A DNA stretch of 29,138 nt from Promethearchaeota archaeon (GCA_004524535.1 SDNY01000040.1:1-29138), one strand, 5' to 3'. Numbered from the stretch's first letter, positions 1 to 10,902 are shown. Program-made: numbers and translations. Notes: generated from the letters alone by a model not told the origin.

Positions 1-1767
1 TCTACCAAACGATTTAAGCAAAAAACTTAAATCTTCAAAAAATAATTATTATTCATGGATAAAAACCAAGAAGATAAGCTAGAAGTTGAAATACGAGAGC
101 ATTCGGACGCCGATTTTTACCCCGAAAACTGTCCCTCATGTGGTTGTAAAGAAATTAATCGCAAAACGTACAAAATAAGGACAATTCAAGATCTTGGTAC
201 GCCAATGATCTGTAGGAGGATAAGATATGAGAAGGTGACATTTATATGCGCGAAATGTAAAAAAACATTCACGATCAGGCATCCATTAATACCGCCCCGC
301 ACATCATTCATGCCAGGAGTAATAAAATATGCGATCAGGGAAAACGGGGCGAATTAAAGGTCGATTTTTCTGACGAAGTCCCTCCTGAAGATTTTTCGGG
401 ATTTATTTCTATTGACGGAATGTTTAAAGCGGCGACTACAAAAAAAAACGATCCCAAGACAAGCAAGAAAAAGGAGCAACCAAAGTAGATAAGAAAGGAA
501 TCCTCGTGGCAAACGACCGAGTCACAAAAAAGAACCTTGCCGGTGCTATAGTTAAAAGCGAAAACGAAGATGATACGGCATTTTTCGTTGAAAAATTAAT
601 AGAATGGTTAGGGTCTATTAATTACGTTACTATTGACTTTTCAGACCGCTTAGAAGCCGGTGTGAGACAATTTTTTGCCGAAGAGCAAATTCTTAAATGT
701 GCTTTCCATGCAGCTCAACTTTTAAACAGAGGGTTGCTAAAAGAGCTAACGAGGCTTAAAAACGAGAAATATCAACATGAAATTAAGGAATTAGCATTCT
801 TAGGACACTTCTCTTTAGAAATTGAAGCGAAAGACGGGATTTTGAACTCAAAAGAATTGAAATTTGCCGGTTCTAAACAAGCTTGGCAGGTCTACTTGAA
901 GCTCCGCTCTATTTTTTCAATTACCAACCCCTCTAAGATACAAGCTGATCTCCTTGCGTATTTAAATAACTTATCCATTACTCCCTGGAAGGGTGCGAAT
1001 CTATTGAAAGAAAAATATTTATCCCTCTTACCGGCACGTGGTCTCACAGCCAAGAGTCTTGAGTCCTTTAAATTGAGAATTTATAGAGCATGGAGAGCAA
1101 TAATCCGTTCGTTTCGTAAGAATTTAGAAGACTTAAAATCTGGATTTCAAGACGCTAAATATTTAGTTTTAATGAACCCGTTAAACATGGATAAATACCA
1201 GAAACGAGCATTACGAAAAGCGTTAAAAAAATTCCCGTGGCTTCGGGCAATCCGAAGGATAATGACGAAATTTTATTATCAGTTTCGTCTTTCCCCATCA
1301 AAAAGAAGTTCTTTAACATTTTTATTGGCATTAGTGACTGAAAATTGCCATTCTTGGCTTAAAAGTGCCGTAAATACGCTAATTAAGTGTGAGGATCAAA
1401 TCTTTCGCTTCCAAGTGTTGATTGAGCAAAATCCCGCATTAAAAGAGTTTAAAGCAATAAGAGTAGTCGATGAGGCCACCATGAGAAAGATCAATAAGCT
1501 GTACCAGACGCAATTCGGGATGCGAACAGTTGAAACTCTTGATATGAGACTGAAACATTATCTGGAGTGCCCTTTCATCATAGCTCCAAGTGTTTTGGAA
1601 GAGTTAAAAAATTAGCTATTATTCAAAGATCATACTCATTAAAAAAAAGAAATTTAATAAAATTTTTTTTATATTTTTTTTATTTTATTATCACTTATCT
1701 TAATTTACTCTGATTTTCCCCTAAAGATAAATTCAGAGTTTTACCGATTTCTTCTTACGGAAAGTCC
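1..1767 (+). mobile_element. ISL3-like insertion sequence, left end probably outside the window
   Basis: Transposase above. The candidate right end ...CTTACGGAAAGTCC at 1767 reads GG-first on the reverse strand, as ISL3 ends typically do, but no partner inverted repeat is visible in the window. Confidence 0.4.
55..1615 (+). pseudogene. ISL3-family-like DDE transposase split across three frames (probable internal deletion plus a -1 slippery site)
   Basis: 55-357 encodes a zf-ISL3-like zinc finger (CPSCG..RTIQDL..CAKC). A second frame (~336-488) reads GKRGELKVDFSDEVPPEDFSGFISIDGMF, carrying the first DDE Asp. The A9C run at 440-449 leads in the -1 frame into the 506-1615 ORF, which has the ISL3-like motif VTIDFS...KCAFHAAQLLN. 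Confidence 0.75.
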
Positions 1768-1783
1768 GGATTGAATATATTAT

Positions 1784-2260
1784 TTGAAAAAATTATTTCT
1801 TGATAAAGCATTTACCCCATTAATTTCAATTTTCAATGTTTCAAAGAATTTTAGGGTATTAAGGATATTAAAGGATTTTCTTATCTCATTGAATATATCA
1901 CACAATAAATCTATTGAGATTCTTAATTCTTACATTGATAGAATTCATATATCAATTGAAGCAAGACTTCAAAAAAAGATAAACATTGATAAATGGAATT
2001 ATGGAAATTATAAAACAAACAATTACGCAGGGCACACCCAAGCCATTCGAATTGGAGATTTAACCCTATACTTTAGTTATAAAACGGTTATAGCATTTTC
2101 TAATTATAAGTATGGATTCGTTATAAGTGAAAACATATGGTCTATGACAACGGGAAAGCATTTGAATTGGTTAGACTCTGATAAGAAAAGACGGATTCCC
2201 CATAAGGAATTTCAAAAGTTATTAAACAATGTGTTAGGCTCATATAACTTAATTTTATAA
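1784..2260 (+). CDS. Hypothetical protein with a phage/MGE-type domain (YFSYxTxIAF ... WSxTTGKHLNW)
   Basis: ORF followed directly by T-tracts. The C-terminal half has the SYxT / SxTTxKH pattern I recall from small phage proteins of unknown function. The TTG start is uncertain. Confidence 0.6.
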   Translation: MKKLFLDKAFTPLISIFNVSKNFRVLRILKDFLISLNISHNKSIEILNSYIDRIHISIEARLQKKINIDKWNYGNYKTNNYAGHTQAIRIGDLTLYFSYKTVIAFSNYKYGFVISENIWSMTTGKHLNWLDSDKKRRIPHKEFQKLLNNVLGSYNLIL

Positions 2261-2280
2261 TTTTTTTTAATTTTTTTTTT
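2261..2280 (+). terminator. Oligo-T archaeal-type terminator
   Basis: T8-AA-T10 immediately after the stop codon at 2260. Confidence 0.5.
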
Positions 2281-2347
2281 CATATTATGTTTATGTTTAA
2301 GGTTTTTTACCATAAATTTCTTTGGAAATGCTTCATTACTAGACCTC

Positions 2348-2548
2348 AGTTATTGTGGGACACTCAAGTCATTATTTTTTTTTAGTCCTCTGTCGAAGCA
2401 GAAGAGACTTTGAAATAAAATTGGCAGGATGGCAATGAGTTGAAAACCCTCCCATCTCATAGACTATTAGGCAACCGTATTAACGGGAAGCCTTTAAATT
2501 AAACTTGGGTATGACCCAGAGAAGCCGTCTAGTGCTCTCACAATAACT
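2348..2548 (+). ncRNA. Candidate IS110 bridge/seek RNA
   Basis: Perfect 10-bp basal helix AGTTATTGTG (2348-2357)/CACAATAACT (2539-2548), extendable to 17 bp with one bulge. It encloses helices 2384-2409, 2428-2456, 2461-2464/2527-2530, 2469-2493 and 2506-2518, directly upstream of an IS110 recombinase. Confidence 0.6.
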
Positions 2549-2578
2549 CTTATGAAATAAATAAGGTGACTAAATGCA

Positions 2579-4084
2579 ATGGCTTCGGAGGGTAAGGTTG
2601 TATCATCTTTAGCGGAAGCTATTACATTTAGACCCGAAGGTGAGTATAAAATGGAATTGGTAGAATTTAAAGTTGATGTTGATTGGAGAACACACCCGTT
2701 TTTTTGCGGGTTAGATGTTCACAAGCATGAGCTCGCCGTTACGATTTGTACGGCAGAGTATAGAGACGCCAAAGTTGTAAGTCGATCTATTTTTTCTGTG
2801 AATTCAGAGGGTTTAGAACAATTTTGGAATTATGTTAAGAAATATCAGCCTGCCGGCTTCGCAATGGAAGCCACAGGAATCTTTCACCATTGGATACACA
2901 AATTTTTAATGCAAAAATTAACTACGGTGGACTGGCATGCTGAGATGATTATCACTAATCCATCAGATGCGCATAGTCTTCCTGGAAGACCAAAAGATGA
3001 TAAAATAGATTCAGAAAGCTTAGCGAAGTATTTAGCAAAAGGAATGCTTAGATGTGGAAAACCAATTATTGAGGTTCAGGAAGATTTAAAAGCTATTTTT
3101 CGGATGATCCTTCGTATCGAAAAAGATAGAACTGCTCTTAAAAATCGAATAATAAAGACCCTTGACCGAGCGGGCATTCGACCAAAAAGAATGTCTCTAA
3201 ATATGAACTGGGTGTGTCGTTTTTTGTATTACTTCACCCATTTTCAAGGCACTTTGGGAGCATTCTTAGATGAAATCTTTACCGACGGACATCCTTTAGA
3301 GCCTCAACACACCGTTATTAAGAAAAATATCGGACGATTTCAGCCATTTTCTCCAATCGCTCTGACTCATATTCAAAGAACTCTTATTCGTCAAGATTTA
3401 ATCGAATTAGATTTTAAAACTGGTCGAAAAGATACCCTTACCATCGAGATTGGTCACATTATAGAACAATATCCTCATCTCAGGCATCATGCGTCTAATT
3501 TAGCTTCGATACCTGGATTGTCAAAAGTTAAGGCGGTATGGATCTTAGCAGAAATTGGTTCCCTTAAACAGTACCCTACTTCCCGTAAATTTGCTGCATA
3601 TTGCGGATGCTGTCCACGAATAGTTTCTTCTGCGGGAAAAGTCTATTCTGCCCATACTATGCGGCATTCTAATAAATATCTACGGACCATTTTTTATAAT
3701 GCTGCGATAGTCATCTGCAATTTGTTAAAACAAGATTCAGAGTTAAAAAGATATGCTACACGCACCATTCAGCGAAAAGGAAGGACTGCTTTCAAGTTAG
3801 CCGTTTGTACGGTAGCCACAAAGCTCACAAAAATAACATACGCAATACTTCGAGATGGGAAACCTTTCGATCCTGAGCATTCACAAAAACTTTTACATCC
3901 TTTAAAAAAGGACAATGAACAAGTATTTACGTTAGTAGAAAAGAAGATTATTAGACATGCTCGAAATGTACTCAAACGGGTATCACAGATGGAGAATACT
4001 CAAGATCTTGGAATCTTAGGAGAAGATCTCAGCATTGTCGCTGAGCATTTAGACTCTCTGCTCGAGGGAAAAAAAATTATATAG
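2579..4084 (+). CDS. IS110-family DEDD recombinase/transposase
   Basis: RuvC-like DEDD residues in GLDVHK, AMEATG and KDDKID. C-terminal Tnp domain SIPGL..ILAEIG..FAAYCGCCP..SSAGK with the catalytic Ser. GGTGA SD at 2565-2569. Confidence 0.95.
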   Translation: MASEGKVVSSLAEAITFRPEGEYKMELVEFKVDVDWRTHPFFCGLDVHKHELAVTICTAEYRDAKVVSRSIFSVNSEGLEQFWNYVKKYQPAGFAMEATGIFHHWIHKFLMQKLTTVDWHAEMIITNPSDAHSLPGRPKDDKIDSESLAKYLAKGMLRCGKPIIEVQEDLKAIFRMILRIEKDRTALKNRIIKTLDRAGIRPKRMSLNMNWVCRFLYYFTHFQGTLGAFLDEIFTDGHPLEPQHTVIKKNIGRFQPFSPIALTHIQRTLIRQDLIELDFKTGRKDTLTIEIGHIIEQYPHLRHHASNLASIPGLSKVKAVWILAEIGSLKQYPTSRKFAAYCGCCPRIVSSAGKVYSAHTMRHSNKYLRTIFYNAAIVICNLLKQDSELKRYATRTIQRKGRTAFKLAVCTVATKLTKITYAILRDGKPFDPEHSQKLLHPLKKDNEQVFTLVEKKIIRHARNVLKRVSQMENTQDLGILGEDLSIVAEHLDSLLEGKKII

Positions 4085-4332
4085 TCCGAAGCAATTTTTA
4101 ATTGCAAGGAGTTTTATTTTATTTTATTTTTTATTTAGGGTATTCTCATTTTTGTCGAATAAGAAGGTGATATTGCTATCACCCCCTCTTCTTGGAACCG
4201 TGCGTGCGAGTTTCCCCGCACACGGCTCGAGCCTCAAGAACCCGTATCACGTCATCGTGTTCCTTTGGTTCATATTTCTCATAATCCCCCCAAGATTCTC
4301 TAAGTTGCCTCAGAGATCTTTATAGGAAATGA

Positions 4333-5790
4333 TCACATTAGCATATTTCCACACCAAGATTTACCATACCGCTTCTCCCAGTACTCATGTAGTGTAGCAT
4401 CATACGGGCTATTATACCCCTTTACAGGTGTATATCTTACACCCGCTCTAAAAGACCGACTAAATAGCAATAAATTATCTCTCCGTTCTCCGAAAATCCA
4501 CTTTCTCTTTCCTATGTTCATAAAGTATCTACGTCTCACCCATTTATTCATTTTATCTGGATGTCTTCTCAGGCACCATCTCCACAGCATATTCCATATC
4601 CGATAATCTATGTAATTAAAAGTCTCCTTAGCAGTACTAAAACGGTAATAGTTAGCCCATCCTCTAATAACAGGATTCAACTCACTTACTAACTCATCTG
4701 CTTTTATTTGTTTATTATTAGAAATCACAGTTTTAATATGCTCCAAATGTCGTTTAATAGATTTCTTTGATGGTTTTGCTAAACAAACCCTTTTAGCTCT
4801 ACCATGATATTGCCGAATATGAAATCCAAGAAAATTAAATCCCTCATCTCGATGGACAATCTTCGTTTTAACTTCGTTCAACTCCATTCCCCTCTCCTTG
4901 AGAAAGGCTCGAAGTTTTGGAAGCACATACCTCACGATTTTCTCCCTTGATGGGGCAATTACTACGAAATCATCGGCATATCGAATCAAGCTCAATCCCT
5001 TATTCTCACCATACCTATTTGACGGACATGTATAATTTCCTTTGGAGTTTTCCGCCCCAAAGAGTCGTTCCATACCGTCCAATGCTATATTAGCAAGCAA
5101 CGGACTTATAATTCCCCCTTGGGGTGTACCTGATTTTGTCCGATAATACTTACCCAGTTCAATAATCCCTGTTTTAAGCCATTTCCTAATGGTTTCCCGA
5201 AAAACGGGAACCTTCTTCAGCAAGGCTTCATGATCAATATTATCAAAACATCCCGATATATCCGCATCTAAAATCCAAGCACTTCGCTTCTGCGTTCCTT
5301 GTATTTTAATTGTTGCCCAAATTTGCCAAATCGCATCCATACATCTACGTCCCGGTCTAAAACCATATGAGTGTGGTTCAAATTTCGCTTCCCATTCGGG
5401 TTCCAATACCATTTTCACGAGCATTTGCATGACTCGATCTTTAATCGTTGGAATACCCAAAGGTCGTTTATCCCCACTTCTCTTAGGAATATAGACACGC
5501 CTAAGCGGTTTACATTTATAATTAAATATATTGGTTTGACGGACATCTTCCACTAATTCGGCACGTGCCCTTGAAGTGGGATAAATCTGTCCATCAATTC
5601 CCGGCGTATATTTGCCTCTATTTTCCTGCGTGACTCTTTTAACCGCTAAAAGCCTCGCAAAATGTGATCCGACAAGGAGTTTTTGAAGGTTCCGTTCTTG
5701 AAGCCGTCTTACATGTCGCTTGGGTTTATCCCATTGGATACTATCCCACTCTACCACATGCCCTTTGGTCTGTTCAATGCTTTCACACAT
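4333..5790 (-). CDS. ltrA: Group II intron reverse transcriptase/maturase (En-minus), outer intron
   Basis: TPGIDG, RRVYIPK..RPLGIPT, SYGFRPGR, DADISGCFDNI, GTPQGGIISPLLAN, RYADD, FNFLG, maturase LNPVIRGWANYY. No HNH domain. Confidence 0.95.
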   Translation of the reverse strand: MCESIEQTKGHVVEWDSIQWDKPKRHVRRLQERNLQKLLVGSHFARLLAVKRVTQENRGKYTPGIDGQIYPTSRARAELVEDVRQTNIFNYKCKPLRRVYIPKRSGDKRPLGIPTIKDRVMQMLVKMVLEPEWEAKFEPHSYGFRPGRRCMDAIWQIWATIKIQGTQKRSAWILDADISGCFDNIDHEALLKKVPVFRETIRKWLKTGIIELGKYYRTKSGTPQGGIISPLLANIALDGMERLFGAENSKGNYTCPSNRYGENKGLSLIRYADDFVVIAPSREKIVRYVLPKLRAFLKERGMELNEVKTKIVHRDEGFNFLGFHIRQYHGRAKRVCLAKPSKKSIKRHLEHIKTVISNNKQIKADELVSELNPVIRGWANYYRFSTAKETFNYIDYRIWNMLWRWCLRRHPDKMNKWVRRRYFMNIGKRKWIFGERRDNLLLFSRSFRAGVRYTPVKGYNSPYDATLHEYWEKRYGKSWCGNMLM

Positions 5791-5856
5791 CGTCTAACTT
5801 CCCCTTCGGTTAAGATTTCTCAATACTTTTCTTTCGTTGAGACCTGCATAGGAAGT

Positions 5857-8162
5857 GTCGAGTAGGTCGGGAGCATTGCTGCCCCTTTCCCCTCTTGGAA
5901 CCACACGTACGGGTTTCCTCGTATGTGGCTCGAGCAGAGAGTTCCAATCGCGTCACCGCGTACCTTTTCACTGTTCCGTGTCACCACCTTCCAGCTAATC
6001 GGGTCAAACGATAAATTATAATAACTTAAATAGTGTACTTAGATGGTTATAACATCGCACATCTGATCTCCTCATATCTCCTTCTTTTCCAGAACTCTTT
6101 AACTTTCGGATCAGGATTTAAAGGGGACATATCACCAACTTTAAATTTATACTCCAATCTCTTGACATCTCTCGCTTTAGTCAATGTATATCCTGTCTTC
6201 GCGACCCGAAATGCCCACCTTCGATCTCCTGTTATCCTGTAATATCTATCGTATATCCAGCGCTTTCCTTTCCTGCCTTTATGTCTTCTTTCGCACCAGC
6301 GCCATACTAATCTCCACACCACGTCATCTACTCTTGAAAACGCTTGATAAGTATCAGAAAATCGATAATACATAGCCCAGCCCCGAATAATCGGATTGAG
6401 CAGAGCTATAAACTTTCCCTGTTCTAACTGCTTATTAGACCAGATGACTAATCTCATGTGGTCTAAAAATCTTTTGATTTTTTCTTTCTGCGGTTTAACA
6501 TATAATTTCTGTCTTGTCTGTTTTATCGTAAAGCCCAGGAAATTGAAACCCTGTCTTTTATCCGTTATTCTTGTCTTTTCCCTTTTCAGAGTTAAGCCCC
6601 TATCCTTCAAGAACTTCGCCATTCTTGGAATTATACGCCTCATTGCATCTCTCGTCCTTGTCATTACAATAAGATCATCCGCATATACTATAGGTAATCC
6701 GTCCGCTCCGAGTGTCTGTTGTAGCCCATGTAAAGCTATATTAGCTAAAATAGGGCTTACAGGACTTCCTTGGACAATTCCCTTAGTCGTCCTATGTTTC
6801 TTTCCGTTGTCAATAATTCCTGCTTTAAGGCATCGTTTAATGACTCTATGGAATATACCTAACTTATCCAAGATCGCATCCTGTTTTATATTATCAAAGA
6901 ATTTATGTATATCTGCGTCTAAAATAACCCTGTCTCCCTTAATTAATTCCGAATATATCATCTGTATTGCGTCTTGTGTACTCCTACCGGGTCTAAAACC
7001 CATAACACCGGGGTCTATCAGTGCCTCCCATTTTGCTGTAAGAGCAAAAGAGATAATCGTTGTCATCACCCTATCCTTAATAGTCATTATTCCTAAGGGT
7101 CGCAGTTCTGTTTTAATATTATTTCTCTTCTTGCGTCCACGTATTACTGCCCTCCAGTTCTCCTGCGCTTTAGGTATATATCGCCTTAGCACAGGTTGGA
7201 ATTTATACGTTCTATAGTCAAACTTTTCTTTACTTAACTCCATTTTATCTTTTGATGTTAAATAAACCTTTCCATCTATACCAGGAGTGATTCGTCCCTT
7301 ATTCCTCTGAGTAATTGTATAAATCGCGAGTAATTTCGCAGATTCAGACCTAACCAGAAGCTTCATGAGGTTATTCGCTCCCTTCTTATCGCCTTTCTTG
7401 GATGCTCTGTAGATCCTACCTTGAAGTCGCCTTACATTCCGTTCTAGCTGGGAGAAGTTAATCTTGCCCCACCAGTTTTCCTGCCTATAGATTTGTTCAA
7501 TTTTCATTGTCTAACATCCTCTTATAGTTAAGGTTTTCTTCATGGTGCTTTCTCAGTCTCCACCACCTTTGAAGTCAGCAGACTTTCGTCTCGGGGTATC
7601 CCTTCTATAAATTATTCTTTCATTATAGAAGCCCCTATCCAATCCATTACAGATTGGCATTCGCTTCCTCTTAGTTCCTATGCCCGCTAAACCTTCCCCC
7701 TCACTTACGCTCGGGATACCATTAATGGAAATCTCTCCATATATGGGGTTTATCGGGTTTACCATGTTTCGTATAATTGACTTTCAATAACCTCCTTAGG
7801 TACTCATTATCCCCCGACTGCGCTACGATTGGAAAGACATTGAGTGCAGACCAATGCCTACTGGCAGTATTGCTATTTTAGCAAGGCGTATCAATGCATT
7901 TCGCCTCCCCGAAATTACGAGGTTTATCATGAGTTCACTTCATTTACCATAGAGGTCTTGACTAGCCCTCGGCAGGAGTGCATTCTCCACCGTCGGTACA
8001 TTGTCCCCAACGCTTAGCACCTCACCGTTACCAGTGACGCACCCATGGGTAGCCACACTTATCCAATTTAAGGTTGATTTCTTGAGGACTTATCTATCGA
8101 TAAGCATACTATTTTAGTAATACTCAAGGTATCATATTCATTTATACGACTTCATGTCACAC
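5857..8162 (-). mobile_element. Group II intron (inner; IIB/CL-like), 2306 nt, inserted in domain I of the outer intron
   Basis: 5' end GTGTGACATGAAGTC at 8162. GAAGTC (8153-8148) pairs with GACTTC (7576-7571), closing DI. Domain V GAGCCACATACGAGGAAACCCGTACGTGTGGTTC (5931-5898), bulged A at 5863, 3' end ..CTCGAC at 5857. EBS1/EBS2 match the flanking sequence. Confidence 0.93.
6047..7507 (-). CDS. ltrA: Group II intron reverse transcriptase/maturase (En-minus), inner intron
   Basis: RRLQGRIYRA..TPGIDG N-terminal extension, GFRPGRS, DADIHKFFDNI, VQGSPVSPILAN, VYADD, FNFLG, LNPIIRGWAMYY. No HNH domain. Confidence 0.95.
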   Translation of the reverse strand: MKIEQIYRQENWWGKINFSQLERNVRRLQGRIYRASKKGDKKGANNLMKLLVRSESAKLLAIYTITQRNKGRITPGIDGKVYLTSKDKMELSKEKFDYRTYKFQPVLRRYIPKAQENWRAVIRGRKKRNNIKTELRPLGIMTIKDRVMTTIISFALTAKWEALIDPGVMGFRPGRSTQDAIQMIYSELIKGDRVILDADIHKFFDNIKQDAILDKLGIFHRVIKRCLKAGIIDNGKKHRTTKGIVQGSPVSPILANIALHGLQQTLGADGLPIVYADDLIVMTRTRDAMRRIIPRMAKFLKDRGLTLKREKTRITDKRQGFNFLGFTIKQTRQKLYVKPQKEKIKRFLDHMRLVIWSNKQLEQGKFIALLNPIIRGWAMYYRFSDTYQAFSRVDDVVWRLVWRWCERRHKGRKGKRWIYDRYYRITGDRRWAFRVAKTGYTLTKARDVKRLEYKFKVGDMSPLNPDPKVKEFWKRRRYEEIRCAML

Positions 8163-8856
8163 CTGCACCCTTTCAGGTCGGGTATCTCTGTAGTTCATAT
8201 GCTACTACAGCCCTATCCACACCATTACAGCATGGCATTCGCTTTTTCCAGCATCCTCTGCCCATTAAACCATCCCCCTTCCTCGCGGTCGGGATACCAT
8301 TCCACATACGTGTATGGGGCTTATTGGGTTTACCAAGTTCCTTATGTCCGACGTTCAACAAAGCCCTTAGGGAGATGCTATCCCCCGGTTGCACAACGGA
8401 TAACAAAGGAATGATAAAAAAGCATTCCTACCTGGCAACTTACCATTTTGGTCTTGGCGTATTAGCTATATTTCGCCAATTTTTAATAACGAGGTTTATC
8501 ACATCTTCACTCTCGTTTCCCATAGGCTTCTTGGCTAGCCCCTCTAGACCACTTTATAGCTAAGTGCAGAAGGAACATTGTCTCCAGAGCTTCACACACC
8601 ATTATTACTAATGATGCATGTCTGGATAGCCACTATCGGTTATCTCAATAGCAGTTTTTGAAAACCACCTTCCTACATATCTGTTTCCAAGTCCTGTATT
8701 CGAACATAAAGCTTCTTGTCGCACTATCTACTTTAAATAATTTACAAATTAAGTGTTTTTAAACCATTATTTTAGTTTTAATTCTACCAATAATTTTAGA
8801 AGATAATAATTGTCTTAAAATTTTATTTCTTTTATATGGTTTAGGAACGTAAAAAT

Positions 8857-10902
8857 ATGTTAAGACTTGAACGGGATCAGGGCCAATTTAAATTATTCTT
8901 CAGAGAATTTGAATTTTTAAGACATTCTAATAAAAATTCTTGTATAGAAATTGGCACAGGTAAAGAAGATTATCGCATGAACGAACAACATTGTGGAATT
9001 TACAGACCTAAAGATAATAACCTGCAAATGCAGGGGCTTAAAGAATTTAAATTTGTAGAAATTAGTGAAATTAGGATAATAGTCGAATTCGACAACTTAC
9101 TTAAATTCCAGTTAAATGTAATATCTGATCATCTTGAAGTTGCTATATCTTTACTGAATAAAAATCAAAATTTCAATCGTTTCACAATCCATATTCCTGC
9201 AATTAAAGATGAATCAATTTATGGGCTTGGTGAACAGTTCTCTGTTTTAAATATGCGTCATCGAAACGTGCCTCTTTTGAGTCGGGAACCTGGTTTTGGA
9301 CGAGATCATTCTAGATTCTCAAAATTGGCAGAATTATATTTGGAGGGAGGTTCAGGCGCTTGGCATACTACATATTACCCACAACCTACTTTTGTTTCTT
9401 CACGAAATTATTTCATACATGTGGAGAGCTATGCATATACAAGATTAAATTTTTGTAGTAGAAACTTCCATAGGCTCCATTTTTGGGAAATTCCAAATCG
9501 AATTATTGTTGATGTTAGACCTACAGCTGTAGAGGTGATCCAATCGCTCTCAGATTATTTAGGACGACAACCCAACCTTCCTGATTGGTCTGTTAATGGT
9601 TTATGGTTAGGAGTAGGAGGAGGTCTTGATGATAATAGTCAGTGGAGTATTCCTCAGAAATTAAAACGAGCGCTTGATGCGAATATAAAGATCTCTGCAA
9701 TTTGGTCGCAAGATTGGACAGGACTCTATAAAATCTCGCGATTTGAAACCCGTTTATTCTGGGACTGGCAATACGATAATCAAAGATACGCCAACCTGCC
9801 AGAATTTATTAAACAATTAAATGCTCAGGGAATAAAATTCTTAGGATATAACAATTGTTTTCTAATGAAGCACGGCGATCAATATAAGGAAGCAAAAGAA
9901 AAAGGTTATCTAATAAAGAAGAAAGACGGAAATGTTTACGATATTTTAATGCTGACGTTTTCTGTAGGGATGATAGATCTCTCAAATCCAGAAGCATGGG
10001 ATTGGATTAAAGAAATTATTAAAGAAAATATGCTTAAGATAGGATTGAGCGGTTGGATGTGTGACTATGCCGAATACATTCCTATGGATTGTGTTTTATA
10101 TTCAGGAGAGGACCCGCGTATTCACCACAACAAATATCCCGTCCTTTGGGCAAAAGTAAACTATGAAGCCACAAAAGAATATGAATCAGAAGAAGGAAAG
10201 GATGAGATTGTTTTCTTCAATCGTTCTGGGGGTATTGGAACTTCGAAATATTCGCCATTAATATGGGCGGGTGATCAACTCGCAAATTTTTCTATTAATA
10301 ATGGATTGGCATCCGTCATTTGTGCCGGATTATCAATAGGTTTTTGTGGAATTGGTCATTTTCATTCTGACATCGGGGGTTTATTTACTTTTTCTGCATT
10401 TAAACGCACAAAAGAGCTATTTATGAGATGGACTGAACATGCAGCTTTCACATGTGTTATGCGATCTCATGAAGGACATGAATATGAAGGGCGTAAAGAC
10501 TGGAAATTTGATTCCGATGAGGAGACCCTAGCACATTTAGCAAAATTTACACGTATTCATTCACACCTAGTACCTTATACCCGTCATATATTAAATGAGT
10601 ATCAAACTACTGGGTTGCCTTCAATCCGACATCCTTATATTCATTATGAAGATGAGCCAATCCTCCATCGTATTAAATATCAATATCTTTATGGAAGAGA
10701 TCTCCTTATTGCTCCAGTATATTCTAAAGATAAAACCACCTGGAAAGTTTATCTTCCAGAAGATAATTGGATCCATCTCTGGTCAGGTAGAAATTACAAG
10801 GGAGGATGGCTAGATATATCCGCACCAATTGGAGAGCCTCCTGTATTTTATAGAGCAAAATCAGAATTTTCCCAACTATTCCATGAACTAAAAAATATTT
10901 AA
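8857..10902 (+). CDS. yihQ: GH31 alpha-glycosidase, YihQ/sulfoquinovosidase-like
   Basis: Colinear with E. coli YihQ as I recall it: WSQDWTG..RLFWDW, GWMCDYAEY (nucleophile), WAGDQ (acid/base), HSDIGG, RSHEG, YQYLYGRDLLIAPV, APIGEPPVFYR. Confidence 0.88.
   Translation: MLRLERDQGQFKLFFREFEFLRHSNKNSCIEIGTGKEDYRMNEQHCGIYRPKDNNLQMQGLKEFKFVEISEIRIIVEFDNLLKFQLNVISDHLEVAISLLNKNQNFNRFTIHIPAIKDESIYGLGEQFSVLNMRHRNVPLLSREPGFGRDHSRFSKLAELYLEGGSGAWHTTYYPQPTFVSSRNYFIHVESYAYTRLNFCSRNFHRLHFWEIPNRIIVDVRPTAVEVIQSLSDYLGRQPNLPDWSVNGLWLGVGGGLDDNSQWSIPQKLKRALDANIKISAIWSQDWTGLYKISRFETRLFWDWQYDNQRYANLPEFIKQLNAQGIKFLGYNNCFLMKHGDQYKEAKEKGYLIKKKDGNVYDILMLTFSVGMIDLSNPEAWDWIKEIIKENMLKIGLSGWMCDYAEYIPMDCVLYSGEDPRIHHNKYPVLWAKVNYEATKEYESEEGKDEIVFFNRSGGIGTSKYSPLIWAGDQLANFSINNGLASVICAGLSIGFCGIGHFHSDIGGLFTFSAFKRTKELFMRWTEHAAFTCVMRSHEGHEYEGRKDWKFDSDEETLAHLAKFTRIHSHLVPYTRHILNEYQTTGLPSIRHPYIHYEDEPILHRIKYQYLYGRDLLIAPVYSKDKTTWKVYLPEDNWIHLWSGRNYKGGWLDISAPIGEPPVFYRAKSEFSQLFHELKNI

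Follow-up and report, generated by a model that had tools for sequence, protein, structure and literature searches.

A group II twintron in a Lokiarchaeal genome: one reverse transcriptase-encoding intron nested in another, probably within its domain III

Two nested group II introns, i.e. a twintron, lie on the minus strand of a 29,138-nt stretch of DNA from a Promethearchaeota archaeon (GCA_004524535.1, SDNY01000040.1:1-29138). This whole stretch is called the window below; the twintron, its parts and the flanking genes are listed in Table 1, with positions counted from the first letter of the window. The 5' end of the outer intron reads GTGCG from position 8724 and that of the inner intron GTGTG from position 8162, and both 3' ends read ...CGAC, at 4154 and 5857, respectively. 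Both introns match the Rfam model RF02012 for domain I (DI), at 8516-8652 (minus strand) for the outer intron and at 7897-8073 (minus strand, 41.9 bits) for the inner one, as well as the model RF00029 for domains V and VI (DV/DVI). All four matches exceed the gathering scores of Rfam, which is 40 for RF00029. Each intron also carries an open reading frame (ORF) encoding a reverse transcriptase (RT)-maturase with RVT_N, RVT_1 and GIIM domains above cut-offs and an intact YADD motif. The two proteins are 38% identical, and a family search of both ORFs gave no match to an endonuclease domain in either intron-encoded protein (IEP). In domain IV (DIV) of the outer intron, a DIVa-like hairpin with a GGAGG-type motif stands immediately 5' of the ATG. 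The six-domain layout of the outer intron is backed by covariation in DI, domain II (DII) and domain III (DIII), by the DIV stem and by the DV/DVI match, the DIII of the window itself being split by the insert.

Table 1. Features of the twintron and of its surroundings in the window
Feature	Position	Strand	Remarks
Whole twintron, outer and nested inner intron	4154..8724	-	4571 nt
Outer 5' exon	8725..8745	-	end ...TTTAAAGTAGATA; intron-binding site 1 (IBS1) just GATA, 4 bp with TATC of exon-binding site 1 (EBS1)
Outer domain I	8334..8718	-	two covarying closing helices; EBS1 hairpin loop 8414-8422
Outer domain II	8261..8328	-	consensus folding and pair counting on alignment A2
Outer domain III (predicted), 5' part	8163..8253	-	basal helix, GGAA strand, three distal hairpins (one with GAAA tetraloop), GCAG; stops at insertion point
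Outer domain III (predicted), 3' part	5845..5856	-	ACTTCCTATGCA; TTCC strand pairs with GGAA, GCA strand in basal helix
Outer domain IV	4230..5844	-	basal stem GGTCTCAA (5837-5844) with TTGAGGCT (4230-4237)
Outer intron-encoded protein, 485 aa	4333..5790	-	RVT_N, RVT_1, GIIM; YADD
Outer DV/DVI	4154..4230	-	RF00029, 63 bits; bulged A 7 nt from 3' end
Inner group II intron, 2306 nt	5857..8162	-	5' GTGTG, 3' end ...CTCGAC
Inner domains I / II / III	7763-8156 / 7683-7757 / ~7565-7675	-	alignment and folding
Inner EBS1 loop	7842..7852	-	CTGCACTC (7849-7842) with 5' flank; GGT (7852-7850) with 3' flank
Inner intron-encoded protein, 486 aa	6047..7507	-	RVT_N, RVT_1, GIIM; YADD
Inner DV/DVI	5857..5933	-	RF00029, 51.3 bits; one A.C mismatch in upper DV helix
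IS110-family transposase gene	2579..4084	+	flanking; opposite strand to twintron, context only
Glycoside hydrolase family 31 (GH31) gene	8857..10902	+	flanking; opposite strand to twintron, context only

An earlier note on this DNA, made from the sequence alone, had read here two full sets of ends, DV/DVI and RT ORFs in the order 5' outer, 5' inner, 3' inner, 3' outer. It had also proposed that removal of the inner intron restores a stretch of the outer one that is homologous to the corresponding stretch of the inner intron itself, and that the host is probably an Asgard archaeon. The first point agrees with the Rfam matches, the ORFs and our own reading of the sequence. The second is supported by alignments A1 and A3. 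As to the host, the closest relatives of the outer RT (75-82% identical) are found on contigs from Promethearchaeota/Loki metagenome-assembled genomes (MAGs) or from uncultured archaea, and 27 of the 399 genomes examined from the same phylum encode a relative of this RT at E <= 1e-40.

The nesting is precise. Removing 5857-8162 gives an outer sequence continuous with its relatives, in which ...TGCTG^ACTTCC... is unbroken in six of six loci and then in all of nine more; several of these 15 uninterrupted loci are the same places fetched twice, which leaves about ten distinct ones. When the two outer pieces were compared with the relatives by BLAST, the 5' piece stopped two bases before the start of the 3' piece in L041, L042, L043 and L045. 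The nine outer-family loci found in 153 genomes of the order are all empty, including one that is 90% identical (G250) and one from the same genus (G169), and a junction probe run over these 153 genomes found no junction-spanning match beyond the genome of the window (G000). Furthermore, a natural empty-site copy exists in sequencing run X2, which stems from another sample of the same study: an 882-nt contig, about 97% identical to the window, joins 8165 straight to 5856, the two letters between them amounting to one substitution. The same 8165/5856 joint is seen in X4, on a contig whose short side counts just 24 letters.

Since G000 is a fragmented MAG of 198 contigs (3.66 Mb, the window being contig C114), in which further contigs break off at related introns, a metagenome assembler might have falsely nested two separate related introns. 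Contigs from the Logan resource speak to this point: two of them, from run X1, cover 5769-7424 and 7408-8878 with 0 differences, span the two junctions of the inner intron and the 5' junction of the outer one, and have an even depth of about 55. These contigs are the product of a different assembler, although X1 may be the run behind the assembly of the window and would then not provide independent data. The gap in X1 cover over 4331-5746 was not used, such gaps proving nothing. Several other observations are difficult to reconcile with false joining: both junctions coincide exactly with canonical ends of introns, the flanks fit together to the nucleotide as a conserved DIII, the EBS1 loop of the inner intron fits the flanks over 8+3 bp, and an independent metagenome contig is nested alike. 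We therefore regard an assembly artefact as extremely improbable.

This independent contig, L141 (2833 nt), was found by scanning metagenome contigs for the 5' end of an intron placed immediately 3' of the DIII motif. The scan returned two loci, of which L142 gave no group II Rfam match and was considered fortuitous. Over 2.6 kb, L141 and the twintron of the window are 84% identical, and their insertion points are the same. L141 carries an inner intron of 2290 nt (129-2418) with an intact ORF of 491 amino acids, flanked by outer remnants (1-128 and 2419-2710), and two DV/DVI matches. Its outer ORF has shrunk to about 40 codons, and its 3' exon differs from that of the window. We conclude that 4154-8724 is a genuine group II twintron, in which an RT-encoding inner intron sits precisely within an RT-encoding outer intron.

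The part of the outer intron that is interrupted can be deduced from covariation. DI and DII were delimited by consensus folding and pair counting on alignment A2, which holds 12 family members. DI is closed by a 4-bp helix (columns 7-10/411-414, two compensatory changes) and a 12-bp helix (columns 16-27/397-408, ten compensatory changes). Hence, 12 of the 16 closing pairs are compensatory, and 96-99% of the cells pair. Over the whole of DI and DII (121 pairs, 83 of them with compensatory change), 96.6% of the cells are paired, compared with 37-47% when the partners are slid. DI closes at 8334, which is 171 nt (about 230 alignment columns) 5' of the insertion point between 8163 and 8162, and a full DII lies between them.

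For DIII, regarded as a catalytic effector that boosts the chemistry of group II introns, a covariance model of 24 pairs gave 69 matches (61 of them distinct) just 5' of RT genes in 95 sources, bacterial relatives included. Over the 61 distinct sequences, 90.1% of the cells pair versus 31-51% after sliding, and changes on both sides are seen in 23 of the 24 pairs, in an alignment (A4) that was fitted to its own model and leans towards that structure. In particular, the UUCC strand right after the insertion site covaries with a GGAA strand that belongs to the 5' half of this domain (GC 33, AU 12 and CG 4 for one pair; GC 41, UA 8 and CG 5 for another). The basal stem of DIV starts 12 nt past the site, its partner strand being located immediately 5' of DV, and shows a compensatory change in L038. 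From these pairings, the insertion site is predicted to lie on the 3' strand of an internal loop in the outer DIII, between the UUCC strand and a short GC-rich helix by which three distal hairpins are closed. The motif targeted is nearly invariant and lies directly 3' of a GAAA-tetraloop hairpin and 12 nt 5' of DIV. With respect to the reading frame of the outer IEP, the insertion point is 66 nt upstream of the ATG (5790), in DIII RNA and outside the ORF, so that the target is ribozyme RNA and not coding sequence, as the earlier note had held.

That note had been more specific, placing the site in DI or at its 3' end, where the inner intron would part a CUUC 3' strand of the DI basal stem from a 5' GAAG. 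The proposal draws on a real complementarity: in 11 of 11 sequences, AAG (intron positions 11-13) can pair with the CUU that follows the site, and this pairing extends to 5-7 bp in some of them (7 bp in the inner intron itself). However, it shows 0 compensatory changes; three of its pairs are invariant, and one, 16-646, is broken in 5 of the 11 sequences. Columns 16-17, on the 5' GAAG side, covary instead with columns 408-407, within the 12-bp helix of DI, and the CUUC strand covaries with the 5' strand of DIII across the 61 sequences. Moreover, DI is already closed about 170 nt upstream and followed by a full DII, and the mere 12 nt between the site and the DIV stem would leave no room for DII and DIII had DI ended there. 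An interruption of DI is therefore highly improbable, and the site is better assigned to the third domain. The invariant AAG and CUU triplets may form a tertiary contact. Another pairing, of GACUUC with GAAGUU just before the ATG, was suggested by alifold on the 11-row alignment and was set aside because both strands are almost invariant and clash with the covarying DIII helix.

The choice of this target can be related to the pairing of the inner intron with its flanks. A hairpin near the 3' end of DI has a loop that, in 9 of the 12 members of alignment A2, pairs over at least 5 bp with the end of the 5' exon. Since this pairing holds although the exons differ, the loop is identified as EBS1. 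In the inner intron, EBS1 forms 8 contiguous pairs with the 5' flank, a level of at least 8 pairs being reached at only 0.6% of the positions of the window, and the adjacent GGT forms 3 bp with ACT of the 3' flank. At position -2 of the target (window 8163-8166, minus strand), most relatives have U, whereas A is found in the window and in L018 and C in the empty-site contig of X2; the nominal partner of this position is an invariant A, and pairing there occurs in 31 of the 61 sequences only. The relatives of the inner intron (L121, L122, L138, L124 and L125) occupy other targets, none of them at DIII sites. Two of these introns, L122 (2 bp) and L138 (4 bp), pair poorly with their exons, so that their boundaries may be off. 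L121 and L124 come from different genomes, and the 5' flank of the former and the 3' flank of the latter have in common a structured-looking motif, GGAAGGTCTATAG..GTGCCAGCGAAAGG.., which may be another repeated RNA element serving as target.

A search by eye for EBS2 yielded two candidates, both rejected. The 14-nt loop of a GGCG...CGCC hairpin fits an AUAUUU-type exon in some members of the outer family but not in the inner intron or L018. The second candidate, CUUUG/CUUUC located 3' of the EBS1 hairpin, fits UAAAG/GAAAG upstream of IBS1 in both introns of the window but is kept regardless of the exon in L018 and L038. Six introns of the outer family (that of the window, 8731-8745, minus strand, and L041-L045) lie 6-8 nt 3' of a TATTTAAAG-like motif that precedes an A-rich run; a motif of this type is common to the 5' exon of the window and to those of five out of five relatives. 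It may correspond to an archaeal TATA box, which it resembles, or alternatively to the IBS2/IBS1 target of the outer intron family.

Comparison of the two nested copies provides further information on the inner pairing. IBS1 and EBS1 are GTGCTG and CAGCAC in L141 but GTGCAG and CTGCAC in the window, i.e. they differ by a compensatory change. This argues that the pairing of the inner intron with its DIII site has been kept by selection, be it for splicing, for homing or for both. In the tree, the inner introns of the window and of L141 are sisters (support 96/98), and the non-nested L121 comes next. In the tree of the outer introns (410 columns; L057, which is truncated, and L038, which has no match for one part, were omitted), five empty introns form a clade (91/91) and both nested ones fall outside it, without being resolved as sisters. 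The identities of L141 to all its outer relatives are similar (82-89%). With two nested copies known versus about ten distinct empty ones, a single old insertion inherited by both copies and a sublineage of introns that homes into the DIII site would fit these data alike.

Taken as a whole, the locus is very probably best explained as a Lokiarchaeal twintron whose inner intron was reverse-spliced into DIII of the outer one through EBS1 complementarity. In this scenario, an endonuclease-less inner intron would have reverse-spliced into a DNA copy of a related resident outer intron, the target being chosen by complementarity to its EBS1 loop. The insert of 2.3 kb would part the two strands of the basal helices of the outer DIII. 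Since the outer ribozyme would regain a canonical DIII only after excision of the inner intron, inner-first splicing is expected, followed by splicing of the outer intron, and we consider this order fairly probable. The composite behaves, in this view, as a selfish element living in another selfish element. Furthermore, the stems of the DIVa-like hairpins that precede each ATG are nearly identical in both introns of the window, which makes a shared use of the inner protein conceivable. The outer ORF is damaged in both nested copies, a mere anecdote with n=2, and the ORFs of uninterrupted relatives are mostly full-length, the exceptions being the L045/L017 copy (one stop) and L047 (which matches residues 1-288 only). 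From this damage one may propose, speculatively, that the IEP of the inner intron serves both introns.

A number of observations weigh against this explanation, in addition to the self-fitted DIII alignment, the possible origin of run X1, the small number of nested copies and the unresolved position of the outer introns in their tree. The outer protein has an in-frame deletion of 42 nt (14 amino acids) in its N-terminal RT0 at 5691 (minus strand, codon 33), a segment present in all seven relatives that cover it; in related contigs of runs X3 and X4, the missing 42 nt are carried as loose ends at 5691. The EBS1/IBS1 pairing of the outer intron (TATC/GATA) is limited to 4 bp versus 5-9 bp in uninterrupted close relatives. 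Given this short pairing and the loss in RT0, the outer intron may have lost the capacity to splice or to move. An A.C mismatch is present in the inner DV, which has the lower Rfam score. A search of public sequencing runs for the stretch found it in no RNA run and gave DNA contigs only.

Several of these points would also fit a twintron that is wholly or partly dead, in which removal of the inner intron is no longer needed or no longer possible. The outer intron could splice while tolerating the insert as a large appendage of DIII, or neither intron would splice and the locus would be a decaying relic in non-coding DNA. Besides the deletion in RT0, the 4-bp outer pairing and the mismatch in the inner DV, neither intron has a second copy in its own genome, and the twintron, beside an IS110 gene, is intergenic and runs antisense to the genes on either side, so that no host gene would exert selection for splicing. 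Folding of a group II intron brings its two ends close together, so that the strands of DIII could still meet around the insert. A precedent exists in plant mitochondria, where serial splicing has been described but also dead inner introns that are tolerated, called 'zombies', one of them in DI (Zumkeller, Gerke & Knoop 2020, PMC7049729); for instance, the outer intron of the lycophyte sdh3i349g2 splices with its inner intron unspliced, and an inner-first order is thus not obligatory (PMC7049729). On the other hand, both ORFs are open over 485 and 486 codons with YADD intact, all catalytic hallmarks are above the Rfam thresholds, and the compensatory EBS1/IBS1 change argues for selection on the inner pairing after the two copies diverged. 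The empty copy of X2 (~97%) can be read as the outer intron having moved after the inner one was spliced out, or equally as a copy that was never invaded. A dead or merely tolerated insertion thus appears unlikely, albeit with some weight, and we retain the explanation given above as the better one.

As a form, a twintron with an inner intron in a ribozyme domain and sequential splicing has been documented before, namely in bacteria, organelles and methanogens. In the chloroplast twintrons of Euglena studied by Copertino and Hallick, internal introns reportedly interrupt functional ribozyme domains, are spliced sequentially and in some cases carry a maturase. Unlike the introns of the window, these are said to be degenerate organellar group II/III introns located in protein genes and not mobile full-RT retroelements. 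In Methanosarcina acetivorans, homing into intron ORFs was reportedly described in a 2003 study by Dai and Zimmerly; the single inner intron of the window is, in contrast, in DIII RNA. A review describes, in Methanosarcina, up to five introns nested in arrays that lack coding exons (PMC4424553), and the nested introns of M. acetivorans home into related group II introns, which constitute a 'perpetual homing site' (PMC4424553, PMC2882425). The window shares with them an archaeal host, homing into the sequence of a related intron and the lack of a coding ORF in the flanking exons. According to the same review, the inner intron must often splice first, and inner-first splicing is the textbook expectation for twintrons (PMC4424553).

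Other systems among the closest known are bacterial. In Trichodesmium erythraeum, the inner intron of the Tr.e.I7/Tr.e.I8 twintron lies in DI next to theta, and splicing is sequential in vivo (Pfreundt & Hess 2015, PMC4649490). As here, the ribozyme part of the host intron is interrupted and not its ORF, and the composite is about 5 kb long. However, that twintron is found in a conserved protein gene of a cyanobacterium and involves DI, whereas the present one is intergenic, involves DIII, belongs to an Asgard archaeon and is known from DNA alone. A twintron with an insertion in DI and sequential splicing having already been published (PMC4649490), any claim to novelty is weakened accordingly. 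In Thermosynechococcus elongatus, TeI4/TeI3 has an inner intron without ORF, inserted between two start codons within DIV, and the working IEP is that of the outer intron (Mohr et al. 2010, PMC2882425). The likeness consists in one family targeting a conserved site in another, in the use of one IEP for both introns, which in the window is conjectural, and in inner copies that are younger than the diverged outer ones (PMC2882425). In contrast, it is here the inner IEP that is intact and the outer one that is damaged (window) or lost (L141), and the site is a structural one in DIII. Plant mitochondrial twintrons (PMC7049729) differ in being organellar, mostly ORF-less or degenerate and assayed for splicing, whereas here both ORFs are open and the evidence is genomic. 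Group II introns have been reported in Asgard archaea (bioRxiv 10.1101/2024.12.10.627823). Our literature search for Asgard twintrons found no report, the available text of that preprint containing neither 'twintron' nor 'nested', and a search for intron insertions in domain III found none described in titles or abstracts.

The twintron is intergenic, beside the IS110 transposase gene, and since it lies between two genes of the opposite strand, no host gene depends on its splicing. The outer intron is a single copy in G000, and the inner intron is represented elsewhere in this genome only by distant fragments, with 81-82% identity over 144 nt, where contigs end. Related group II introns, truncated where the contig stops, are found at the end of contig C189 (L005), at the end of C94 (L002) and at the start of C95 (L003). 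They interrupt paralogous protein-coding genes in frame, with a 5' exon ending in ...EFWAHCS and 3' exons that encode NMQVWVENNY... (a leucine-rich-repeat protein) and NLQAWYEHDY.... This in-frame interruption indicates that some group II introns of this Lokiarchaeon sit within protein genes. Beside the intron-bearing gene of L002 (G000:C94), an ORF at about 60-900 has an N-terminal sequence recognised by eye as gelsolin/villin-like.

Other nested arrangements were encountered in related genomes. In L044 (G161:C58), domain I of an outer-intron orthologue is interrupted by a different RT-encoding intron, located at about 854-3082 of the locus. This insert follows GGGAAA, to which its EBS1-like loop TTTCCC is complementary, and its 5' end is ATGCG and not GTGYG. 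In L123 (G161:C36; DIII match 3656-3747, minus strand; DV/DVI 3236-3309, minus strand), a relative of the inner intron is interrupted in its 5' part by a small, apparently ORF-less group II intron. Judging from these sequences, L123 appears to be a third nested arrangement, and nesting does not seem to be rare in these genomes.

Spliceosomal introns are presumed to descend from group II introns, and among known organisms Asgard archaea are the nearest to the eukaryotic host. For this reason, the life of group II introns in Asgard genomes is of real interest, even though the locus says nothing direct about the ancestry of the spliceosome. It shows Lokiarchaeal group II introns invading one another, with one nesting, assigned to DIII, that has persisted or recurred in two diverged copies together with a compensatory change of the guide pairing, and with a protein gene of the invaded intron that decays in both. 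It offers a compact natural system for questions on ordered splicing and on the sharing of IEPs. A further and rather improbable possibility is that a Lokiarchaeal sublineage has specialised in homing into the DIII motif (GNRA hairpin, GCNG^ACUUC). Two-step splicing would then be obligate, and the outer introns would lose their RT and rely on the inner protein. If true, the archaeal lineage nearest to eukaryotes would provide a natural example of introns evolving towards trans-dependence on a shared splicing factor.

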